64,000 bases of DNA from NCBI GenBank assembly GCA_945917765.1, contig CAMEHU010000004.1, positions 14,925 to 78,924 on the forward strand. Direction: 5' to 3'. This document shows, in pieces, positions 44,168 through 52,565 of this stretch. The DNA comes from an uncultured Lachnospiraceae bacterium. GTDB lineage: Bacteria; Bacillota; Clostridia; TANB77; CAG-508. Position 1 is the stretch's first letter. Each line of letters begins with the position of its first letter. The notes beneath the pieces are model-generated. The model was not told where the DNA came from and searched no databases. It saw only the letters and a list, made by a program, of their open reading frames with translations. Both the position numbers and the translations under genes were made by a program.

Positions 44168-44244
<77 letters not shown>

Positions 44245-44385
44245 GAAACTATATAGTATTATAAACTTTTTTTTATAGTATTTCAAGAGAAAATTAAAAT
44301 TTTTATAAATTTTTTTAAAAAACTATTGAAAAATGAAATAGAATATGTTATATTATATTAGTCTAAACAATGTTTAGCCAATAAT

Positions 44386-44461
44386 CGAGGCGTAGCGCAG
44401 TTGGTAGCGCGCGTGGTTTGGGACCATGAGGTCGCAGGTTCGATCCCTGTCGCCTCGACCA
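44386..44461 (+). tRNA. tRNA-Pro (anticodon UGG), encoded CCA
   Basis: CGAGGCG acceptor, anticodon loop TTTGGGA, GGTTCGATCC T-arm, CGCCTCGACCA 3' end. Confidence 0.9.
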
Positions 44462-44468
44462 TTTTTAA
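44451..44468 (+). repeat. attL core (overlaps tRNA-Pro 3' end)
   Basis: cgcctcgaccatttttaa; 17/18 identical to 57281-57298. Confidence 0.65.
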
Positions 44469-44596
44469 AGATTTTTCAAGAAATTCTATAAAACTTCAGA
44501 AAAGTCTAAAATGAGAAAAGGCACATGTTTGTAGCAATACAGCATGTGTCTTTAATTTTATCAAATTCTGTGAAATTCTAAAAAATGCTGAAAAAA

Positions 44597-44660
44597 TTTC
44601 CAAAATAAATTTCAAGAATTAATTTTTATCTATAAAAAGTTTCCAAAAAATTTCAAGAAT
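44597..44660. repeat. Iteron-like direct repeats upstream of the RepA_N gene
   Basis: tttccaaaataaatttcaagaat (44597-44619) and tttccaaaaaatttcaagaat (44640-44660); partial tttcaagaa at 44474. Confidence 0.5.
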
Positions 44661-44697
44661 AGCTATCTCTTATCCAGACTGGATTAGGAGGAATTAG

Positions 44698-45285
44698 ATG
44701 TTAACTTTTGTACCACATAAAATTAATGAGGACTATAAGAAAGTAGAATTTTATCGCGTTAATAAGGAGTTGTTGAATTGCGAAGAATACAGAGGTTTGT
44801 CGCCTACTGCAATTTTATTATATTCGCTTTTATGTGATAGGCTTTCGCTTTGTTATAGTAATGAATTAAATAATAATGTTTCTAAAAATAAAAATCATTA
44901 CTATGATGAGAATAAAAATATGTATGTAATTTTCACGAGGATGAATTTAGAAGAAAAATTACATGTTGGAAAGACAGCTATCAATTCTGCATTTGAACAG
45001 CTTAAAAAAGCTAACTTAATTCAAGAGAAAAGACAGGGGAGAAATAAGCCTAATAGAATCTATGTTGGAAAGACAAAATCTGAAATTAGTGAAAATTTTG
45101 TAAATTGGAAGTCTGAAAATCGTACTTCCGGAAATCCGATTTTCGGATATCCGGAGGTGCGAAAATCGGATGCAAATAATAATAATATATTTAAATCTAA
45201 GAATAAAGATTGTAAATATTTGGATTATGAAGAACGTGATTATTCTAATTATGATTGGTTGGATTTGTATGCTAATAAAAAATGA
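44698..45285 (+). CDS. RepA_N-family replication initiator-like protein
   Basis: N-terminal pattern ...FYRVNKELL...LSPTAILLYSLLCDRLSL...YVIFTR..., winged-helix ...AINSAFEQLKKANLI...NRIYVGK. Homologous to 57566-58117. Confidence 0.6.
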   Translation: MLTFVPHKINEDYKKVEFYRVNKELLNCEEYRGLSPTAILLYSLLCDRLSLCYSNELNNNVSKNKNHYYDENKNMYVIFTRMNLEEKLHVGKTAINSAFEQLKKANLIQEKRQGRNKPNRIYVGKTKSEISENFVNWKSENRTSGNPIFGYPEVRKSDANNNNIFKSKNKDCKYLDYEERDYSNYDWLDLYANKK

Positions 45286-45304
45286 AATAGAGAGGGTTGG
45301 AATT

Positions 45305-45676
45305 ATGGAAAATATAAGAGAAAGAATAACTTATCGAAGAGAGGGAGATTATTTATTACCAGATTTAACTGTTGATGAAGGTGTAGGAGATAATTATAGA
45401 ATTGGTAAATATGGATATTTAAGGCTTGATTGGTTACAACAAAATAAAAAGGGATTATATACGGAATTAATGCTTGAGGGAAAATTGCCAGAGCATTTAG
45501 TAGAAATTGATAAACAAGCAAACGTAAGAGTAAAACAAATAGTTGAAGAACTTGCAAAGTCAGAAAATGCAGATGAAACTTTAAAACAAAATAATCAGCT
45601 GGAGTGGGTTAGATTGATGAATAATTTTAAGAATCAAGCTGAAGAGATAGTGTTTGATGAGTTAATTTATAATTAA
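45305..45676 (+). CDS. tnpV: TnpV-like protein
   Basis: MENIRERITYRREGDYLLPDLTV...IGKYGYLRLDWLQQNKKGLYTELMLEGKLPEHLVEID matches the TnpV family pattern. The ORF-track N-terminal extension (45170) overlaps the upstream gene and is rejected. Confidence 0.7.
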   Translation: MENIRERITYRREGDYLLPDLTVDEGVGDNYRIGKYGYLRLDWLQQNKKGLYTELMLEGKLPEHLVEIDKQANVRVKQIVEELAKSENADETLKQNNQLEWVRLMNNFKNQAEEIVFDELIYN

Positions 45677-45696
45677 GTATTGGAGGATTGGTTGAG

Positions 45697-45990
45697 ATGA
45701 GTAATTTAAGAAAAGTAAATGATGATATTTTTAGGGAATGGTTTAAATTTAGAGAGGAAACTTGTTTTTGTATTACAGATGATGAAGATAAAAAACATAA
45801 AATTAATCTTGAAGAAATAGGAAATAGGATTTTAAAAAATGTACCTAGTCAAAATCAGAAATATGTTAAAAGTCAGTTGGAATTATTGGATAATAATCTG
45901 TTTGATTATATTTCATACTGGAATGAGAAATATTATAGGAATGGATTTTGCGATTTAGTAAAAATGGTAATGGAAGGTTTAGATAAATAG
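45697..45990 (+). CDS. Hypothetical small protein conserved in both tandem elements
   Basis: 97 aa; clear homologue (nonsense-interrupted) at 58136-58420. Confidence 0.55.
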   Translation: MSNLRKVNDDIFREWFKFREETCFCITDDEDKKHKINLEEIGNRILKNVPSQNQKYVKSQLELLDNNLFDYISYWNEKYYRNGFCDLVKMVMEGLDK

Positions 45991-46024: not shown

Positions 46025-46654
46025 TTAATAAAAAGTTTTTCTTCTGTTCTCTAATTCGTCAAAATATAGATCCAATGAATAATCTCTAAATATATATGGA
46101 TTAAATAAGCTTATGATGATATCGTCATATTCAGTCACTATCTTTTCATTATCTATTACCTTAGATAGAGTATTAATGCAATTTTCACTAGCTTCTTTAG
46201 AAATTTTAAATTTTGAAGAAAGATAATTAGATGTTACTTTTGCCCCGTTTTTTATAAGTTGCTTTAGTACACATTGCGGAGCTAATATTTGAGAAGCAAA
46301 AAAGTTTGCTTCTTGCTCATTTTTTTCACATTGTGTTGTATGCTCTAATACAATATGTCCAATCTCGTGAGAAATTGTCCACATTTTTCTTCCTTCTGTC
46401 TCTATATCATTATTATAAAAGATATAAGCTGTATTATTGTTAAAATAGGTATATCCATCATTAAATGAACCATTAGATGTAAGTTTTTCTAATGGTATAT
46501 TTGTTATTTGTGAATACTCTTGCAAACTGATTATTACAAAATTATAAGAATCTAATTTTAATTTTCTAGGATCAATTGGAAAGGAAAATGATTGCTGTTT
46601 TATTAAAATTTCATAAGCTTTTAATTTAGCTCTGTAGAAATTAGGTTTATCCAT
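46025..46654 (-). CDS. immA: ImmA/IrrE-family metallopeptidase
   Basis: HEIGHIVLEH (HEXXH) motif; overlaps and follows an XRE repressor gene. Confidence 0.8.
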   Translation of the reverse strand: MDKPNFYRAKLKAYEILIKQQSFSFPIDPRKLKLDSYNFVIISLQEYSQITNIPLEKLTSNGSFNDGYTYFNNNTAYIFYNNDIETEGRKMWTISHEIGHIVLEHTTQCEKNEQEANFFASQILAPQCVLKQLIKNGAKVTSNYLSSKFKISKEASENCINTLSKVIDNEKIVTEYDDIIISLFNPYIFRDYSLDLYFDELENRRKTFY

Positions 46655-46994
46655 TATTATTTTTTCCTAAAAAAATATCAATCGTACTATCTAATATATC
46701 AAGTAATTTTTCTTTTTCTTTAGGATCTACTTGTTCAGCCTTTCTAAAAAGTATAGCTGTTCTAGAATTATCTTCATCTTCAATCTTATCCTTAACTCCT
46801 AACAAGTAATTAACAGTAACACCAAAATAGTTAGCTAATTTATTTAAAGTTTCTGTATTAGGAACTGCATTTCCTGATTCCCAGTAAGAAACTCCAGTTG
46901 CAGTTATACCAACAATATCAGCCACCTCTTGTTGAGTTAATCCTTTTTCCTTCCTTAACTTTTTTATTATTTGTGAAAATTTATTATTGTTCAT
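46647..46994 (-). CDS. immR: XRE-family HTH repressor (ImmR-like)
   Basis: KGLTQQEVADIVGITATGVSYWESG HTH; 8-nt overlap with immA. Confidence 0.8.
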   Translation of the reverse strand: MNNNKFSQIIKKLRKEKGLTQQEVADIVGITATGVSYWESGNAVPNTETLNKLANYFGVTVNYLLGVKDKIEDEDNSRTAILFRKAEQVDPKEKEKLLDILDSTIDIFLGKNNNG

Positions 46995-47082
46995 TTTGGC
47001 CCCCTTCTATAACTTATTATAGTATAGAATAAATAGAATGTAAATATTTTTTAAATAAAATGTAATTTTTGCTTATAGCGTA

Positions 47083-47111
47083 TTGACAAAATAAAAAAAA
47101 CGTCTTATAAT
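47083..47111 (+). promoter_or_regulatory. Consensus sigma-A-type promoter (TTGACA-17-TATAAT) for the rightward operon
   Basis: TTGACA 47083-47088, TATAAT 47106-47111. AATGTAA heptamers at 47037, 47059 and 47115 are candidate operators. Confidence 0.65.
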
Positions 47112-47193
47112 CAAAATGTAAAAAAAATATAAATCTCACTTAAATATTTATAGAGCATTTATATATAGTATTATATCACACAAGGAGGTAAAA

Positions 47194-48087
47194 ATGGAAG
47201 CTTTAATGTTAAGTTCGAAAAAATATAAAGAATCTGAAGAACATGATTATGGAGATTGCTTTATATGTGATACAGGGACTGATGTAATTGTATTTGATTG
47301 TGGTTCTGAAGAACATGCTAATGTAGTTATAAAATACTTAGTAGAACATTACGGAGAACATAAAAAAGCAATAGTCGTACTATCACATAATGATTCTGAT
47401 CATTTTGATGGTATACCAAAATTAATTGAAGAGAATAAAGTAGAAAAAGTATATACCATATTGCTATTAAAGTATTATGAAGAACTCTTAGAAAAAATAG
47501 ATGATGATAGAAAAACAAAAGATTCTATAAAGAGACAAATATTAGAAATGTACTCTAATATTGCAGAATTAGGGAAACAAGGATTATTAAATAATATTTA
47601 TAATTCAGATGATTCCTTTGTTCAAATTTGTAATGGAATTAATGTTGTTGGACCAACAAAAGACTATGTTATAGAAGCTGCGGGTAAAGCTCTTGACTCA
47701 AGACAAGGAGATACAATTAATAAAGAAACTACAGTAAATGCTGCTAGCGTTCAGTTAAGTATTGAGTTAGAAACCTGTAAAATGTTATTGGTAGGAGATG
47801 CTAGTACAGAAGCAATTGAAAACAATGTTAAGAACCATCAAATAATTCAAATTCCTCATCACGGAAGGCTAGACCATGCAGAAGAACTATTTGATATAAA
47901 AAAAGGTGACAGAGATACGGTTTTTTTAATATCCGATAATAAAGGAAAATCTTCTGGAGGCTCAGAAGAACTAATAAAGTCTGGTAAAGACAAAGGACAT
48001 GTAGTCTATAACACGAGGACAGAAGATACCAAAAAAATAACGGGCTCTCTATACCAAAAATCATATAGAGTGGGGTCATATATATGA
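47194..48087 (+). CDS. Stand-alone ComEC-like MBL-fold (metallo-beta-lactamase superfamily) protein
   Basis: 297 aa; VFDCG, VLSHNDSDHFDG (HxDxDH variant of HxHxDH), LLVGDAS, IQIPHHG motifs in MBL order; AGGAGG RBS. Confidence 0.7.
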   Translation: MEALMLSSKKYKESEEHDYGDCFICDTGTDVIVFDCGSEEHANVVIKYLVEHYGEHKKAIVVLSHNDSDHFDGIPKLIEENKVEKVYTILLLKYYEELLEKIDDDRKTKDSIKRQILEMYSNIAELGKQGLLNNIYNSDDSFVQICNGINVVGPTKDYVIEAAGKALDSRQGDTINKETTVNAASVQLSIELETCKMLLVGDASTEAIENNVKNHQIIQIPHHGRLDHAEELFDIKKGDRDTVFLISDNKGKSSGGSEELIKSGKDKGHVVYNTRTEDTKKITGSLYQKSYRVGSYI

Positions 48088-48590
48088 TATATGTATTACA
48101 GCATTCGTATAAAAAAGAATATAATAATTTTAATGATGAAATTCAGGGAAGAAGGGAGTATCTTTATAATATTTTTAAGATGTACTTTATTGTAAAATAT
48201 ACAAATTACAGTAAGAACAGCTTTCTTCATCCTAATTATTATATGTTAGAAAGCTTTCCTGCAAACATATTGGATAATTATTATTTTATAGTCGGAGATA
48301 CAAACTTTGTGATTAGATATATAAAAAATAATATAGAAAAGTTTAACAACAAGATATTAATTATCATAACTTGTAAAAAAAATAACAATGGCTTTTTTGA
48401 GCATTATTTGCCTTCCATAAAATGCTCTTCAATATTTATAGCCAAATTAAATAATGATGAAGCAGACTATTACGATGGAAAAAAGTGGGGACTCAATTTT
48501 AAAATAACGCTATCAGAATTAGATTTGTATAATTCTAATAAAAAAGATCTCGCAGATAAATTAAAAGAATGTTTTGAAAGGATAAAATAA
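48084..48590 (+). CDS. Hypothetical protein (168 aa), translationally coupled to the upstream gene
   Basis: ATGA overlap with 47194-48087; no recognisable family. Confidence 0.6.
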   Translation: MIYVLQHSYKKEYNNFNDEIQGRREYLYNIFKMYFIVKYTNYSKNSFLHPNYYMLESFPANILDNYYFIVGDTNFVIRYIKNNIEKFNNKILIIITCKKNNNGFFEHYLPSIKCSSIFIAKLNNDEADYYDGKKWGLNFKITLSELDLYNSNKKDLADKLKECFERIK

Positions 48591-48592
48591 AA

Positions 48593-49090
48593 ATGGAAAA
48601 TTTTTTTAATAAATTAGAAAATTACAATATTTTCAATTACATATTGCCAGCCATTATATTTGACCTTGGCTGTAGAGTTTATATTAATTTAACAATTATT
48701 CCAACTGATAATTTAGTTATAGCAACTTTTGTATATTATTTTTTAGGATTAGTTATTAGTCGAGTTGGTTCGTTAATTATAAAACCTTTATTATGGAAAT
48801 TGAGAATTTTAGATAAAGAGTATGTTTCGAAAGAGTGTGATTATTATAGAGCAGAAGAAAAAGATCCTAAAATTAAAATCTTATTTACAAATTATAATAT
48901 GTATAGGAATTTTATATCAGCTTTTTCACTTCTTATTATTTTAAAAATAGCTACTAAAATACAGGAACACTTTCCTTTAAATTTTACTTTTATTTTTACT
49001 TCAACAATATTACTGTTATTAGTATTATTTATTATGTCATATAAAAAACAATTGCAGTATATCTATAATAGAGTAGATAATACTAAGTAA
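48593..49090 (+). CDS. Hypothetical membrane protein (about 4 TM)
   Basis: Starts 2 nt after the previous stop; hydrophobic segments IFNYILPAIIFDLG, VIATFVYYFLGLVISRVG, FISAFSLLIILKI, FIFTSTILLLLVLFIM. Confidence 0.6.
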   Translation: MENFFNKLENYNIFNYILPAIIFDLGCRVYINLTIIPTDNLVIATFVYYFLGLVISRVGSLIIKPLLWKLRILDKEYVSKECDYYRAEEKDPKIKILFTNYNMYRNFISAFSLLIILKIATKIQEHFPLNFTFIFTSTILLLLVLFIMSYKKQLQYIYNRVDNTK

Positions 49091-49119
49091 AAAACTCGTG
49101 AATGTATCACGAGTTTTTT
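49090..49119. terminator. Bidirectional terminator
   Basis: aaaaactcgtg-aatgtat-cacgagtttttt between convergent operons. Confidence 0.8.
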
Positions 49120-49981
49120 ACTTAAATATTGCTTTCATTATTTCATTTTTCATATCTGCAATATTATAAATATTATCCATCCTATCAAAAGTCTCTTTCA
49201 AATTGTTCTTTGCAGAAATCCAACCCATACCATCAGTGAACCAAACAAACTCAAAGCCAACAATCTTCTCAGACTCTTCAGCAATCATTTTATAACTTCT
49301 AGCAGTTTCATTAAGTTTAGATCCACCAGCAGCATAGAAATTTGTTTCAATTCCATAAATGCAATTATCAGTTTTTACAACAAAATCAAATCTTTTAGTA
49401 GCTTGATTTTGATTACTAATGAATGACATATCCAACTTCCACTTTTCTTCTATATCTTGCAAATACATTTCTTTGAAATAAGTTTCATTCTTCTTAAATC
49501 CAGCCTTTTGAATATATCTTTCAACAATGTCTTCCATAAGATGTCCACCACGATTTTTTCTGGCATTTGAATTTAATCCAGATTCGATACCTAGCACATA
49601 ATCATATAAATTGTTTACTAAATGATTTTGAATTAAATCAAATAATCCAGTCTCTCTCATAAACACCTTATATTGTTCAATGCCATAATTCATATTCTTG
49701 AAATTATATTCAAATTTATTTCCATCACTATCTAAAACAATTATTTCATATTGTCTTACAGCCAACAAAATTGGAATACATTTTAAAACTTCAGGATATT
49801 TCTTCAATAATTCTTCAAAATCCTTTTCAACATTTTTGCTTCCAATAAGTGAATTCATCATATTTAATTCAATTTTATGTTCTTCAGCATTTCTGTAAAT
49901 TGTTTCAAAATCAATATAATATTTATAATCGGCTATACTATCTGTAAAAGTTAATAGCCATTCGGCAAAATCTCTTTTCAT
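49118..49981 (-). CDS. dpnB: Type II restriction endonuclease, DpnII/MboI family (GATC)
   Basis: Strong resemblance to DpnII (…MNSLIGSKN…, …KLNETARSYKMIAEE…); third gene of an M-M-R cassette. Confidence 0.8.
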   Translation of the reverse strand: MKRDFAEWLLTFTDSIADYKYYIDFETIYRNAEEHKIELNMMNSLIGSKNVEKDFEELLKKYPEVLKCIPILLAVRQYEIIVLDSDGNKFEYNFKNMNYGIEQYKVFMRETGLFDLIQNHLVNNLYDYVLGIESGLNSNARKNRGGHLMEDIVERYIQKAGFKKNETYFKEMYLQDIEEKWKLDMSFISNQNQATKRFDFVVKTDNCIYGIETNFYAAGGSKLNETARSYKMIAEESEKIVGFEFVWFTDGMGWISAKNNLKETFDRMDNIYNIADMKNEIMKAIFK

Positions 49982-50760
49982 AGCTTGTCCTCCTTTAATT
50001 CTTTGTATCTTCTTATAGATAGTTCCAAATATTCTTTTTCATTATCTATTCCTACGTATCTTCTGTTTAATTTAGTTGCTGCAACACCTGTAGTACTGCT
50101 ACCACAGAATGGATCTAAAACCAAATCATTTTCTTTAGTAGATGCTAAAATAATTCTTTCTAATATTTCCACAGGCTTTTGAGTTGGATGCTTACCTTGT
50201 TTCTTTTCAGATGGTTTAGTTAAAGAGGTAGTCCATACATCTTTCATTTGCTTATTACCATTTATTTCTTTCATTAGTTCATAATTAAAAGTATACTTAT
50301 TTTTCTTTAAATCTTTTTTAGCCCATAATATTGTTTCTGTTGAATGAGTAAAAGTTTTACAGGCTAAATTAGGTGGGGGATTAGTCTTTTGCCATGTTAT
50401 ATTATTTATTATTTTAAAGCCTTCTTCCTCTAATGCCATACCTATTGAATAAATATTATGCAATGTTCCACTAATCCAAATTGTACCAGTATCTTTTAGA
50501 GTTCTATAACATTCTTTAATCCATTTTTTATTAAATTCATGTTTTTCTTTAACTGATAAAGCTGTATCCCATAAACCTTTATTAACACTTACCATTTTAC
50601 CGCCACTACAGGTTATTCCGTCATTAGATAAGAAGTAAGGTGGATCAGCAAATATCATATCAAAAGTTTTGTTTTCAAATTGTTTTAAAGCATTAAAAGT
50701 ATCATCATATATTAAGCAAAAGCTTCCATTGTTATAGTAGAAGTTATTTGAGAGTTCCAT
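49978..50760 (-). CDS. dpnA: N6-adenine DNA methyltransferase, DpnA-like (beta class)
   Basis: IFADPPYF catalytic motif near N-terminus, C-terminal FCGSSTTGVAA SAM motif; ATGA overlap with the REase gene. Confidence 0.8.
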   Translation of the reverse strand: MELSNNFYYNNGSFCLIYDDTFNALKQFENKTFDMIFADPPYFLSNDGITCSGGKMVSVNKGLWDTALSVKEKHEFNKKWIKECYRTLKDTGTIWISGTLHNIYSIGMALEEEGFKIINNITWQKTNPPPNLACKTFTHSTETILWAKKDLKKNKYTFNYELMKEINGNKQMKDVWTTSLTKPSEKKQGKHPTQKPVEILERIILASTKENDLVLDPFCGSSTTGVAATKLNRRYVGIDNEKEYLELSIRRYKELKEDKL

Positions 50761-51662
50761 TTTGATTGCTCCTCATAATTGGTTATTAATAATTCTGAAA
50801 TTTCTCCACGTCCTTTAGCATTTGAGTTTATCATTCTTTTGGCAGAAACCTCGTTAATAATAAAGCCATCGTATATAGTGTCAAAGAAATTATCTTCCTC
50901 ATTAACGTTCTTAGGATTTGAATTACTTAGCATTAATTTAGCATTTTTCAAATTTAATTGATTGTAATACTGTGCTAATTCTTTTTGGTTTTCATCATTA
51001 AAATCTTCTTTTGTGTAAGATGTAAATCCTGATGTTACTGAAAGGGGTCTATATGGTGGGTCAAAGTATACAAAAGTATTTTCGGTTATAAGATCTTCAC
51101 TTTTTCTGTAATCTCCATATTCGAAAGTAACATTTTGTATTAATTTTGATAAATTTCTTAAATTGTTTGAATCACATATAGTAGGATTTTTATATTTGCC
51201 ACAAGGAACATTGAATTTTCCATCTTTGTTTACTCTATATAATCCATTGAAACAAGTTCTGTTTAGAAAAATAAATTCAGAAGCTCGTTTGATGTTTAAT
51301 TCATCGTTTAAAACATAAGAGTTGTATTCAGTTCTAATGTTGTAAAAATATTTCTGTCTATTATCACTATCTAAAATTAGAAAATCTTTTTCTTTTTTGT
51401 CTAATTCTTGAATTAATGCTTCAACATTATTTTTTATTACATTATAGCAATTAATTAAATCTTTATTTATATCAAAAGCATATGCTTCTTTTACTTCATA
51501 TTTTTGTAGTATATCTAGTAGAACAGCTCCACCACCAACAAATGGTTCCACATATCTTTCGATATTGCCATTTATTAATTCTACAGGATAATATTTTGTT
51601 AATTGTGGTATTAAGCTATTTTTACCGCCAGCCCACTTTACAAAAGGTTTTACTATTTCCAT
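50712..51662 (-). CDS. dpnM: Dam-family (D12 class) N6-adenine DNA methyltransferase, DpnM-like
   Basis: PFVKWAGGKNSL, EPFVGGGAV and YFDPPY motifs. ATG 51662 after GGAGG preferred over the ORF-track start at 51728. Confidence 0.85.
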   Translation of the reverse strand: MEIVKPFVKWAGGKNSLIPQLTKYYPVELINGNIERYVEPFVGGGAVLLDILQKYEVKEAYAFDINKDLINCYNVIKNNVEALIQELDKKEKDFLILDSDNRQKYFYNIRTEYNSYVLNDELNIKRASEFIFLNRTCFNGLYRVNKDGKFNVPCGKYKNPTICDSNNLRNLSKLIQNVTFEYGDYRKSEDLITENTFVYFDPPYRPLSVTSGFTSYTKEDFNDENQKELAQYYNQLNLKNAKLMLSNSNPKNVNEEDNFFDTIYDGFIINEVSAKRMINSNAKGRGEISELLITNYEEQSKWNSQITSTITMEAFA

Positions 51663-51765
51663 TTTTACCTCCATTATTTCTGAAATAACTATATAATATT
51701 TTATAAGGTTTTTCAAGCGAACAAACAAAGATTCTTAAATAAATATTATATTTAGGGTAAAAAGA

Positions 51766-52174: not shown

Positions 52175-52261
52175 GTAACCGTACTACAAATCGTATTACC
52201 TAAGGCAGAAATCTGCTTTAGCCGCCAATTCGTTCTTCGATTATTGAAAGGAGCACTCACA

Positions 52262-52474
52262 ATGAAAACATTGAAGAAGACGAATTTCTGGAATCCTGGT
52301 GTGAAATACAACAGGAAGAATTCCGCACAGAGCTATATGTCTTCCATGAAGGCAAAAAAGGTCAGTGGCGGAGTTAAGGCTGCTGCAACGGACTGTTCCT
52401 GCAACTGCTACGGTGGTTGTTCTTCGTGTACTAGCTCTTGCTCGTGCACATCCTGCAGCATGGAAAACAGCTAA
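52262..52474 (+). CDS. Cys/Ser-rich RiPP precursor-like peptide (70 aa)
   Basis: MKTLKKTNFWNPGVKYNRKNSAQSYMSSMKAKKVSGGVKAAATDCSCNCYGGCSSCTSSCSCTSCSMENS. AAAGGAG RBS 52247-52253. Lies immediately upstream of an rSAM/SPASM gene. Confidence 0.7.
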   Translation: MKTLKKTNFWNPGVKYNRKNSAQSYMSSMKAKKVSGGVKAAATDCSCNCYGGCSSCTSSCSCTSCSMENS

Positions 52475-52503
52475 GGAACATAAGTTCATAGGCAACTGAA
52501 CGA

Positions 52504-52543
52504 AGTGGGGCAGCTAAGATTGTATAATCAAAGTTGCCCCATT
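52504..52543 (+). promoter_or_regulatory. Intercistronic hairpin between precursor and maturase genes (possible attenuator or processing site)
   Basis: tggggcagc / gttgcccca stem (52506-52514 / 52533-52541) with 18-nt loop; no strong U-tract. Confidence 0.4.
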
Positions 52544-52565
52544 TCCACACAAAGGAGGAAATATT

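Follow-up and report, generated by a model that had tools for sequence, protein, structure and literature searches.

What is the function of an operon of three uncharacterized genes that lies between a divergent pair of immR- and immA-like regulators and a restriction-modification (R-M) system? The question is raised by a 64,000-nt stretch of DNA from an uncultured Lachnospiraceae bacterium (GenBank assembly GCA_945917765.1, contig CAMEHU010000004.1, positions 14,925 to 78,924 of the forward strand), here called the window; all coordinates given below are positions in the window, and L-numbers denote related loci. An earlier note, made from the sequence of the window alone, had proposed that the operon, whose first product carries the motifs of the metallo-beta-lactamase (MBL) fold, was either an unnamed defense system with a nuclease and a membrane effector or a DNA uptake or processing function of a mobile element. 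We find that the three genes and their two regulators form a discrete, self-contained 3.06-kb cassette, which is most likely a three-gene relative of the candidate defense system PDC-M48. On balance, we lean toward reading the five genes as a self-contained, transcriptionally inducible defense or abortive-infection cassette, which would be directed against phages or plasmids. From left to right, its parts are as follows.

46025-46654, minus strand: M78 gene, 209 amino acids (aa), an ImmA/IrrE-type zinc metallopeptidase and putative antirepressor that would cleave the helix-turn-helix (HTH) protein.
46647-46994, minus strand: HTH gene, 115 aa, an XRE/Cro-C1 HTH protein and ImmR/RstR-like putative repressor.
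47016-47044, minus strand: promoter of the HTH and M78 genes, TTTACA-17-TATAAT, scoring 11/12.
47037 and 47059 (block 47037-47065), plus strand: putative operator copies 1 and 2, AATGTAA, 22 nt apart.
47083-47111, plus strand: promoter of genes A, B, and C, with TTGACA at 47083-47088, a 17-nt spacer, and TATAAT at 47106-47111.
47115-47121, plus strand: putative operator copy 3, AATGTAA.
47194-48087, plus strand: gene A, 297 aa, a stand-alone MBL-fold metallo-hydrolase, putative metal-dependent nuclease or phosphodiesterase effector.
48084-48590, plus strand: gene B, 168 aa, a small alpha/beta protein of an undescribed family.
48593-49090, plus strand: gene C, 165 aa, a protein of the PDC-M48A family with about four transmembrane (TM) segments, putative membrane effector, anchor, or sensor.
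49084-49124, both strands: bidirectional intrinsic terminator with a 19-bp stem, which closes the operon at the right edge of the cassette.

The limits of the cassette are given by DNA homology. In blastn comparisons, the homologous block starts at 46026-46029, at the stop codon of the M78 gene, and ends at 49086-49107, at the end of gene C and the terminator, and these edges hold in nine loci whose flanks are unrelated to those of the window. Because the homology stops exactly at the cassette ends, the HTH and M78 genes belong to the unit and are not a generic regulator of the mobile element. The flanking genes differ from locus to locus and include GNAT, PNPOx, hydrolase, and SDR genes (L012), a NUDIX gene and AbiEii (L013), an RNase_T-BRCT gene (L019), and a Schlafen-AlbA ATPase with an integrase (L007). 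The DpnII-type R-M genes that follow the cassette in the window are common to only four close relatives, and this R-M system is a neighbor that stands outside the system described here.

The anatomy of the operon proved to be as first noted. The three open reading frames (ORFs) are tightly coupled, with the ATG of gene B placed in the TGA of gene A (ATGA, 48084-48087) and a gap of 2 nt (48591-48592) between B and C. Gene A is preceded by an AAGGAGG ribosome-binding site, and the operon promoter, a perfect TTGACA-17-TATAAT that scores 12/12, is the top site of the region in a promoter scan. The AATGTAA heptamers reported around it number three: copy 1 overlaps the -35 hexamer of the divergent promoter, and copy 3 lies 4 nt downstream of the -10 hexamer of the operon promoter, which it does not overlap, and covers the expected +1 of the operon. 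Copies 1 and 2 fall within an almost invariant block, AAATGTAAATATTTTTTAAATAAAATGTAA, and the conserved longer contexts around the repeats read AAATGTAAATATTTTTTAAATAAAATGTAA and CAAAATGTAA.AAAAATATAAAT. Counted over the full window, the heptamer shows no enrichment (22 copies found versus approximately 37 expected); three copies on the same strand within 85 nt nevertheless make a local cluster that is unlikely to have arisen by chance (Poisson estimate, lambda of approximately 0.015). Furthermore, both promoters and all three repeats are invariant in the 200-nt intergenic regions of 10 cassettes that are only 70 to 86% identical overall, and the positions adjacent to them vary.

The divergent genes on the minus strand carry the domains expected of an immR-immA pair, as the earlier note had it. 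The HTH protein matches Pfam HTH_3 (2.2e-17), NCBIfam RstR (79.4 bits), and, in the PDB, the N-terminal domain of ImmR from ICEBs1 (7t8i, 8.5e-7); the other protein matches Pfam Peptidase_M78 (7.3e-14) over residues 65-156 of 209 and has an HEIGH motif. The layout, in which an XRE HTH gene and an M78 gene with the HExxH signature lie divergent from and immediately upstream of the presumed target operon, with three conserved repeats that overlap or flank both promoters, is shared with ImmR/ImmA of ICEBs1 and with CapH/CapP, where repeated putative operators likewise stand at both promoters. The genes for CapH and CapP lie upstream of immune operons, in the opposite orientation, and their products derepress these operons upon DNA damage (10.1101/2022.04.27.489752; 10.64898/2026.05.16.725639). 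The window differs from these systems in that its operon is neither an excision or conjugation operon nor CBASS and in that repressor cleavage is here putative. CapP also has a C-terminal GAF domain that binds single-stranded DNA (ssDNA), whereas Pfam detects no GAF domain in the window peptidase, which is therefore ImmA-like rather than CapP-like. The HTH and M78 genes are always present, and always divergent, where A is at least 71% identical to the protein of the window; they are never present in a more distant clade described below.

Protein A, the candidate nuclease, is a member of the MBL superfamily, with a match to Pfam Lactamase_B (PF00753; 3.5e-8, 34.1 bits versus a cut-off of 22.7) and with the motifs DCG (residues 35-37), SHNDSDHFDG (64-73), LLVGD (198-202), and IPHHG (220-224) in the order originally described. 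Its putative ligand residues D35, H65, D67, D69, H70, D202, H222, and H223 show no variation among 44 aligned homologues, which reach down to 42% identity; mutated ligands in homologues had been named beforehand as a finding that would speak against the proposal. The AlphaFold2 (AF2) model (pLDDT 91.5) has 131 MBL matches in the PDB at E values of ≤1e-3, and ComEC heads this list with its beta-lactamase-like nuclease domain (9ic4; E value of 4.3e-11; TM-scores of 0.61 and 0.68), the likeness that had been recognized from the motifs alone. It is followed by the phosphorylcholine esterase Pce, an uncharacterized MBL protein, the type VII CRISPR nuclease Cas14, phosphodiesterases, RNase J, and tRNase Z. 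The top sequence models are all defense MBLs in PADLOC, namely, PDC-M48B (3.4e-21, partial), LmuA (8e-14), Avs1a, and RTasMBL. A member of the protease-associated defense MBL effectors (Avs1a, LmuA-MBL, and RTasMBL) is a Zn-dependent nuclease of double-stranded DNA (Evans et al. 2025, PMC12642450). From this activity and from the ComEC domain we infer a nucleic acid substrate, and A is putatively a metal-dependent nuclease of the ComEC-like, defense-associated MBL type.

By defining features, A is not ComEC, Avs1a, LmuA, RTasMBL, or 6A-MBL. With ComEC it shares, in addition to the fold, the H-x-D-x-D-H variant of MBL motif 2; however, it is a stand-alone, soluble protein of 297 aa, predicted to be cytoplasmic, with neither an OB fold nor a Competence channel and with approximately 18% identity, and it scores only 14.5 bits against the ComEC/Rec2 model TIGR00361 (cut-off of 190) and 12.5 bits against PRK11539. 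It likewise falls far below the NCBIfam cut-offs for Avs1a (50.3 versus 420 bits), for 6A-MBL (NF058524; 21.8 versus 220 bits, with no ubiquitin-related genes nearby), and for Cas14. The protease-associated defense MBLs are similar to A in that their fold is remotely related to ComEC and RNase J, and A matches all three of their PADLOC models; the partners in the window are instead B and a TM protein, the scores lie far below the family cut-offs, and no STAND, SMC, or reverse transcriptase sensor adjoins A.

The fold neighbors of A (Pce, the phosphodiesterase tw9814, PhnP, and YhfI) raise the possibility of an operon with no part in defense, in which A would be a phosphodiesterase or esterase acting together with C, under stress control, on a small molecule or, like Pce, on an envelope component. 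We consider this improbable, given that the scores of the nucleases ComEC and Cas14 equal or exceed those of these proteins, that none of the top sequence models lies outside the defense MBLs, and that the genomic contexts of the family are mobile or defense related and not metabolic.

The nearest catalogued relatives of the operon were found through its last gene. Protein C, with approximately four TM segments by hydropathy, matches the PADLOC family PDC-M48A (PDLC04670; 5.3e-42) with residues 1-164 aligned to positions 1-160 of the 164-position profile, and it also matches phrog_11864 (3e-21). The statement that the second and third proteins have no recognizable family therefore stands for B and falls for C. 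PDC-M48 is a two-gene PADLOC candidate, an MBL protein with a TM protein, that came from guilt-by-embedding; it is one of 145 "phage defense candidates" defined by genes that lie inside BREX, DISARM, or type I R-M systems (Payne et al. 2024 preprint, 10.1101/2024.01.29.577857). Our literature search found no text mention of PDC-M48 and no paper combining an MBL fold, a membrane protein, and abortive infection. The cassette resembles PDC-M48 in that C is a full-length PDC-M48A protein, A is homologous to PDC-M48B, an MBL is joined to a small multi-TM protein in both, and both occur in defense and mobile contexts. The match of A is partial: a comparison of its family with a true PDC-M48B member gives an hhalign probability of 98.8 at 27% identity, and true members of approximately 360 to 380 aa score 290 bits over their full length, whereas A, at 297 aa, scores 73.5 bits over residues 28-162 only. 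The two-gene PADLOC rule (two families, CAS_00157) does not describe the cassette, where B, which is unrelated to PDC-M48B, lies between A and C. The system of the window and its relatives thus adds to PDC-M48 a universally conserved middle gene, absent from the candidate, and dedicated regulators, either HTH and M78 proteins or an ATPase. The epithet "unnamed" does not hold for C, and holds only in part for A, both of which match PDC-M48; it does hold for the additional gene B, which has no family.

The true PDC-M48B member used above comes from a Lachnospiraceae metagenome-assembled genome (MAG) in which both arrangements coexist (L034, 10295-12136), with an A-B locus and a canonical PDC-M48-like pair 1.4 kb apart. 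In the A-B locus the TM gene is apparently broken into fragments of 99 and 95 aa. The PDC-M48-like pair consists of a 382-aa MBL protein (290.6 bits over positions 4-355 of 357) and then a 229-aa TM protein, with no B.

How constant is the trio elsewhere? A scan of one genome per species gave 64 loci, the hosts of which are mostly gut and rumen Clostridia, Lachnospiraceae, Oscillospiraceae, and "Bacilli" MAGs; isolates with loci include Anaerocolumna jejuensis, Sellimonas catena, and Blautia species. Wherever downstream sequence is present, a B homologue starts no more than a few bases from where A ends, and a multi-TM gene comes next in approximately 95% of loci, so that the co-occurrence on which the earlier note had staked its proposal is present. 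Three loci look degenerate (L034, L061, and L069). The third position is occupied by three unrelated multi-TM families: the C (PDC-M48A) type of approximately 165 aa, a type of approximately 230 aa with no PADLOC or Pfam match, and a small group of approximately 220 aa. An MBL gene precedes even the most distant of the B homologues, both in L084, where a resolvase, the MBL gene, B, and a C-type TM gene follow one another, and in L087 and L088, where an ATPase is followed by an A orthologue (hhalign probability of 100) and B, with no TM gene. Because B always accompanies an MBL gene and the TM gene is swapped or absent, A and B form an invariant core to which a frequent but exchangeable TM protein is added.

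These results also bear on the alternative reading of the earlier note, a split ComEC encoded by a mobile element, in which C would form the channel and A would degrade one strand of incoming or outgoing DNA upon induction of the element. The first structural match of A to the ComEC MBL domain, the weak ComEC sequence matches, cotranscription with a membrane protein, and an ImmR/ImmA-like control as in ICEBs1 would all suit such a function. However, C has no Pfam Competence or DUF4131 domain, the score against TIGR00361 is far below its cut-off, A has neither a signal peptide nor a TM segment, the third gene is exchanged among unrelated TM families and is missing from L087 and L088, and the cassette moves independently of conjugation genes. 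With no Competence domain in C, no export signal in A, and a TM gene that is interchangeable and sometimes absent, DNA uptake is the weakest of the readings considered here and, in our view, very improbable.

A second type of regulatory partner appeared in the survey. Approximately 26 distant loci (L001-L006 and L026-L066) have an AAA_15/AAA_21 ATPase of 430 to 466 aa immediately upstream of A, usually divergent from it and co-directional in four loci, that matches PADLOC AbiLi (3e-65) and AriA (1.6e-24). The ATPase of these relatives is similar to those of ABC-ATPase defense pairs (AbiLi of AbiL, AriA of PARIS, HEC-01, and GajA of Gabija); in contrast to such pairs, the window cassette has no ATPase, and next to the ATPase of the relatives there is no conserved AbiLii, Toprim, or other partner. 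On the far side of the ATPase, almost every locus has a different gene, which links the ATPase to the A, B, and TM genes, with no partner of its own, and for the same reason we rejected its assignment to a separate AbiL or PARIS system. The upstream gene of approximately 440 aa in L030 encodes an ISL3 transposase rather than this ATPase, and the upstream genes of about the same length in L032 and L068 are probably not the ATPase either. In a third group, of "Bacilli" MAGs on Mob_Pre elements, the trio has neither HTH and M78 genes nor the ATPase.

The constant companion of A is the protein about which the databases say least. B has no family in Pfam, NCBIfam, or PADLOC, and a sequence search against the PDB gave nothing. 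A profile search of 1.84 billion representative proteins found 274 relatives, all of them stand-alone proteins of 100 to 190 aa, with no fusions. In 199 relatives, R23, G71, C97, F139, and E145 are conserved at 97 to 99%, and at position 72 His is found in 89% and Asp in the other 11%, with the Asp forms making up exactly the window clade. The AF2 model of B is confident (pLDDT 90.5, pTM 0.87) and has no significant match in the PDB or BFVD (best Foldseek E value of 0.49, TM-score of <0.3); only a Rossmann-like beta-alpha-beta stretch of approximately 57 residues aligns in fold searches. Within that stretch of the model, G71-H/D72 and C97 lie at the C-terminal ends of successive strands. In Rossmann-like folds, ligand-binding and catalytic residues are usually found at such strand ends. 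The conserved R, G-H(D), C, and E set may form a small site for catalysis or metal binding. The evolution of B is faster than that of A (29% versus 49% identity).

Three other labels for B were set aside: a sub-threshold Pfam match to DUF6120 (18.9 bits versus a cut-off of 27) and the label "SixA" that JGI gives to one homologue were given no weight, and a profile comparison showed that B did not split off as a domain from the longer PDC-M48B proteins (hhalign probability of 0.2). In the window, the codon of residue 72 lies at 48297-48299; at the equivalent position in L007-L023 the residue is likewise Asp, except in L007, where it is Asn.

The exchange of His for Asp or Asn at position 72 occurs only in the clade that has HTH and M78 genes in place of the ATPase, a correlated change. 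It figures in a rival explanation, modeled on the protease-MBL modules of Avs, Lamassu, and DRT systems, in which A would be a zymogen. Its activator would be B, as a minimal Cys/His hydrolase in which His and then Cys stand at the ends of successive strands, the order of clan CD, or, in the window clade, perhaps the M78 peptidase. MBLs of the kind whose models A matches (LmuA, Avs1a, and RTasMBL) are zymogens that are cut by adjacent trypsin-, caspase-, or subtilisin-like proteases (PMC12642450). In B, moreover, the G-H (89%) and the Cys (99%) each follow a hydrophobic strand, and the His has been lost in exactly those loci where HTH and M78 genes take the place of the ATPase. Nevertheless, neither caspases nor other proteases are matched by the confident B model, the motif is G-H and not H-G, and the His is missing in the window clade itself. 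The Avs1a score of approximately 50 is far below the cut-off of 420, the M78 gene has an HTH gene and putative operators beside it, as is classic for ImmR/ImmA, and there is no trypsin-, caspase-, or subtilisin-like protease in the cassette or in the 64 related loci. We therefore consider protease licensing of the nuclease rather unlikely.

The alternation between an ATPase and an HTH/M78 partner implies that the core is an effector module open to two kinds of control, by a post-translational sensor in one case and by a transcriptional switch in the other. A bolder reading builds on this alternation: A and B may be an unrecognized two-component effector core, in which B would be a licensing enzyme or switch of new fold for a ComEC-like nuclease at the membrane, and which would be served by two types of trigger. 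The ABC-ATPase would then be a post-translational sensor, and the repressor and peptidase would be a switch of the DNA damage type, with the change of His to Asp in the latter clade. We hold this reading only tentatively and think it doubtful as a whole.

The genomic surroundings of the family agree with the location beside defense genes that had been noted for the window. Among 142 immediate neighbors of nonredundant loci, surveyed qualitatively, genes of defense type include AbiEii (four proteins), prokaryotic Argonaute (pAgo)/SIR2 (three), MADS, type II methyltransferases, DrmMII/DruM-like methylases, Schlafen-AlbA (four), ResIII/SWI2-SNF2/PLD, and NgoPII R-M, and mobility genes include serine recombinases (five), integrases, Mob_Pre, and IS66. 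In qualitative terms, the relatives adjoin R-M, AbiE, pAgo/SIR2, Schlafen-AlbA, and ResIII/PLD genes as well as mobilizable elements, and this neighborhood is typical of defense islands and mobile elements.

Such surroundings could also harbor a selfish addiction or competition module, resembling a toxin-antitoxin pair, in which B would be the antidote to A and whose main effect would be to stabilize the element or to kill cells and competitors, not to guard the host against phages. The cassette of the window follows RepA_N and TnpV remnants after a tRNA-Pro gene, and relatives lie with a relaxase and an integrase (L007), Mob_Pre (L062 and L063), or a resolvase (L084). The translational coupling of A and B, the faster evolution of B, and weak matches of the HTH and M78 proteins to a "repressor/antitoxin" family also point in this direction. 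On the other hand, the invariant R, C, and E of B look enzymatic or ligand binding rather than inhibitor-like, neither the ATPase-linked version nor the repressor-peptidase switch is a typical toxin-antitoxin layout, and several loci are chromosomal with no mobility genes nearby. An addiction module therefore seems to us unlikely, although less so than the protease-licensed nuclease discussed above.

In the inducible defense cassette that we favor, the resting state would be one in which the XRE-type repressor sits on the three AATGTAA operators and keeps both promoters shut. A stress of the kind that phages or plasmids cause (DNA damage, ssDNA, or RecA) would activate the M78 peptidase, a step proposed by analogy with ImmA/ImmR and CapP/CapH, and the peptidase would cleave the repressor and release a burst of A, B, and C from the very strong promoter. 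A would degrade DNA; B, as its obligate partner, would license, target, or restrain A; and C, the swappable component, would bring the module to the membrane or would itself damage or permeabilize the membrane. Tight repression combined with a consensus promoter, or a dedicated ATPase in its place, fits products that are harmful when active, as expected of an effector module of the abortive-infection type.

Several observations weigh against this interpretation. PDC-M48, the closest catalogue entry, is itself only a candidate, and the fold neighbors of A include the phosphorylcholine esterase Pce and small-molecule phosphodiesterases. The role assigned to B is entirely an inferred one, and its near-invariant His is Asp or Asn in exactly the window clade. 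With no detectable GAF domain in the M78 protein, the activating signal may differ from that of CapP. The enrichment of defense-type neighbors is qualitative only, and some cassettes lie among ordinary accessory genes (L012). Finally, tblastn found no C homologue in GenBank phages and no A homologue in PLSDB plasmids, and in IMG/VR the A profile picked up nothing but motif matches of 40 residues to unrelated proteins; from these searches, the system is not evidently phage or plasmid borne in those collections. The bioinformatic case that this is a coherent, mobile, and regulated system is strong.

In the window, the cassette is part of an island of approximately 7.5 kb after tRNA-Pro (44386-44461) that contains the RepA_N and TnpV remnants, the cassette, and the DpnII R-M genes; no integrase and no att-like direct repeats bounding the island were found. 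Its left side (44168-45990) holds a tRNA-Arg gene (minus strand), the tRNA-Pro gene (plus strand), a RepA_N ORF (44698-45285), a TnpV ORF (approximately 45299-45676), and a 100-aa ORF, and the RepA_N and TnpV ORFs look like remnants of a mobilizable element. To the right, convergent with the operon as stated earlier, are the genes for a DpnII endonuclease, an N6_N4 methyltransferase, and a Dam/D12 methyltransferase, the two methyltransferases being adenine specific (PF04556, 1.8e-107; PF01555, 6.6e-66; PF02086, 4.4e-63; TIGR00571, 289.7 bits). The ORF of the Dam-type methyltransferase (50712-51728) has TTG as its listed start and overlaps the next gene by 49 nt; since its alignments to the Pfam and TIGR models set in only at residue 25-32, translation probably starts at the internal Met of MEIVKPFVKWAGGKN.

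Farther to the right (52244-53600), a locally GC-rich stretch encodes a Cys-rich peptide of 76 aa ending in ...DCSCNCYGGCSSCTSSCSCTSCSMENS, for which no Pfam or NCBIfam model match was found. The radical SAM/SPASM gene after it matches the "ACGX system" maturase model TIGR04340 (468.7 bits versus a cut-off of 400). From sequence, the two look like the precursor and maturase of a ribosomally synthesized and post-translationally modified peptide.

Many defense candidates of this kind exist, and the cassette is in part of a known kind, a candidate MBL-nuclease defense under ImmR/ImmA-type control; what is new is the B family and the exchange of an ATPase for a repressor. If our interpretation is correct, an entry in a catalogue, PDC-M48, would gain a relative that makes it a defined defense family of gut and rumen Firmicutes, with a conserved third component that matches no recognized fold. 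Immune MBL nucleases would then be controlled in ways other than proteolytic activation of a zymogen, and Clostridia would have a compact, self-regulated immune operon of the ImmR/ImmA type, with a perfect promoter and defined operators within 3 kb. The swap between the ATPase and the HTH and M78 genes would be a natural experiment on how toxic effectors are coupled to different sensors. Should the two-trigger reading also hold, the family would represent new defense biology in three respects: the defense family itself, a new regulatory fold, and the exchange of sensors between control at the level of protein and control at the level of transcription.

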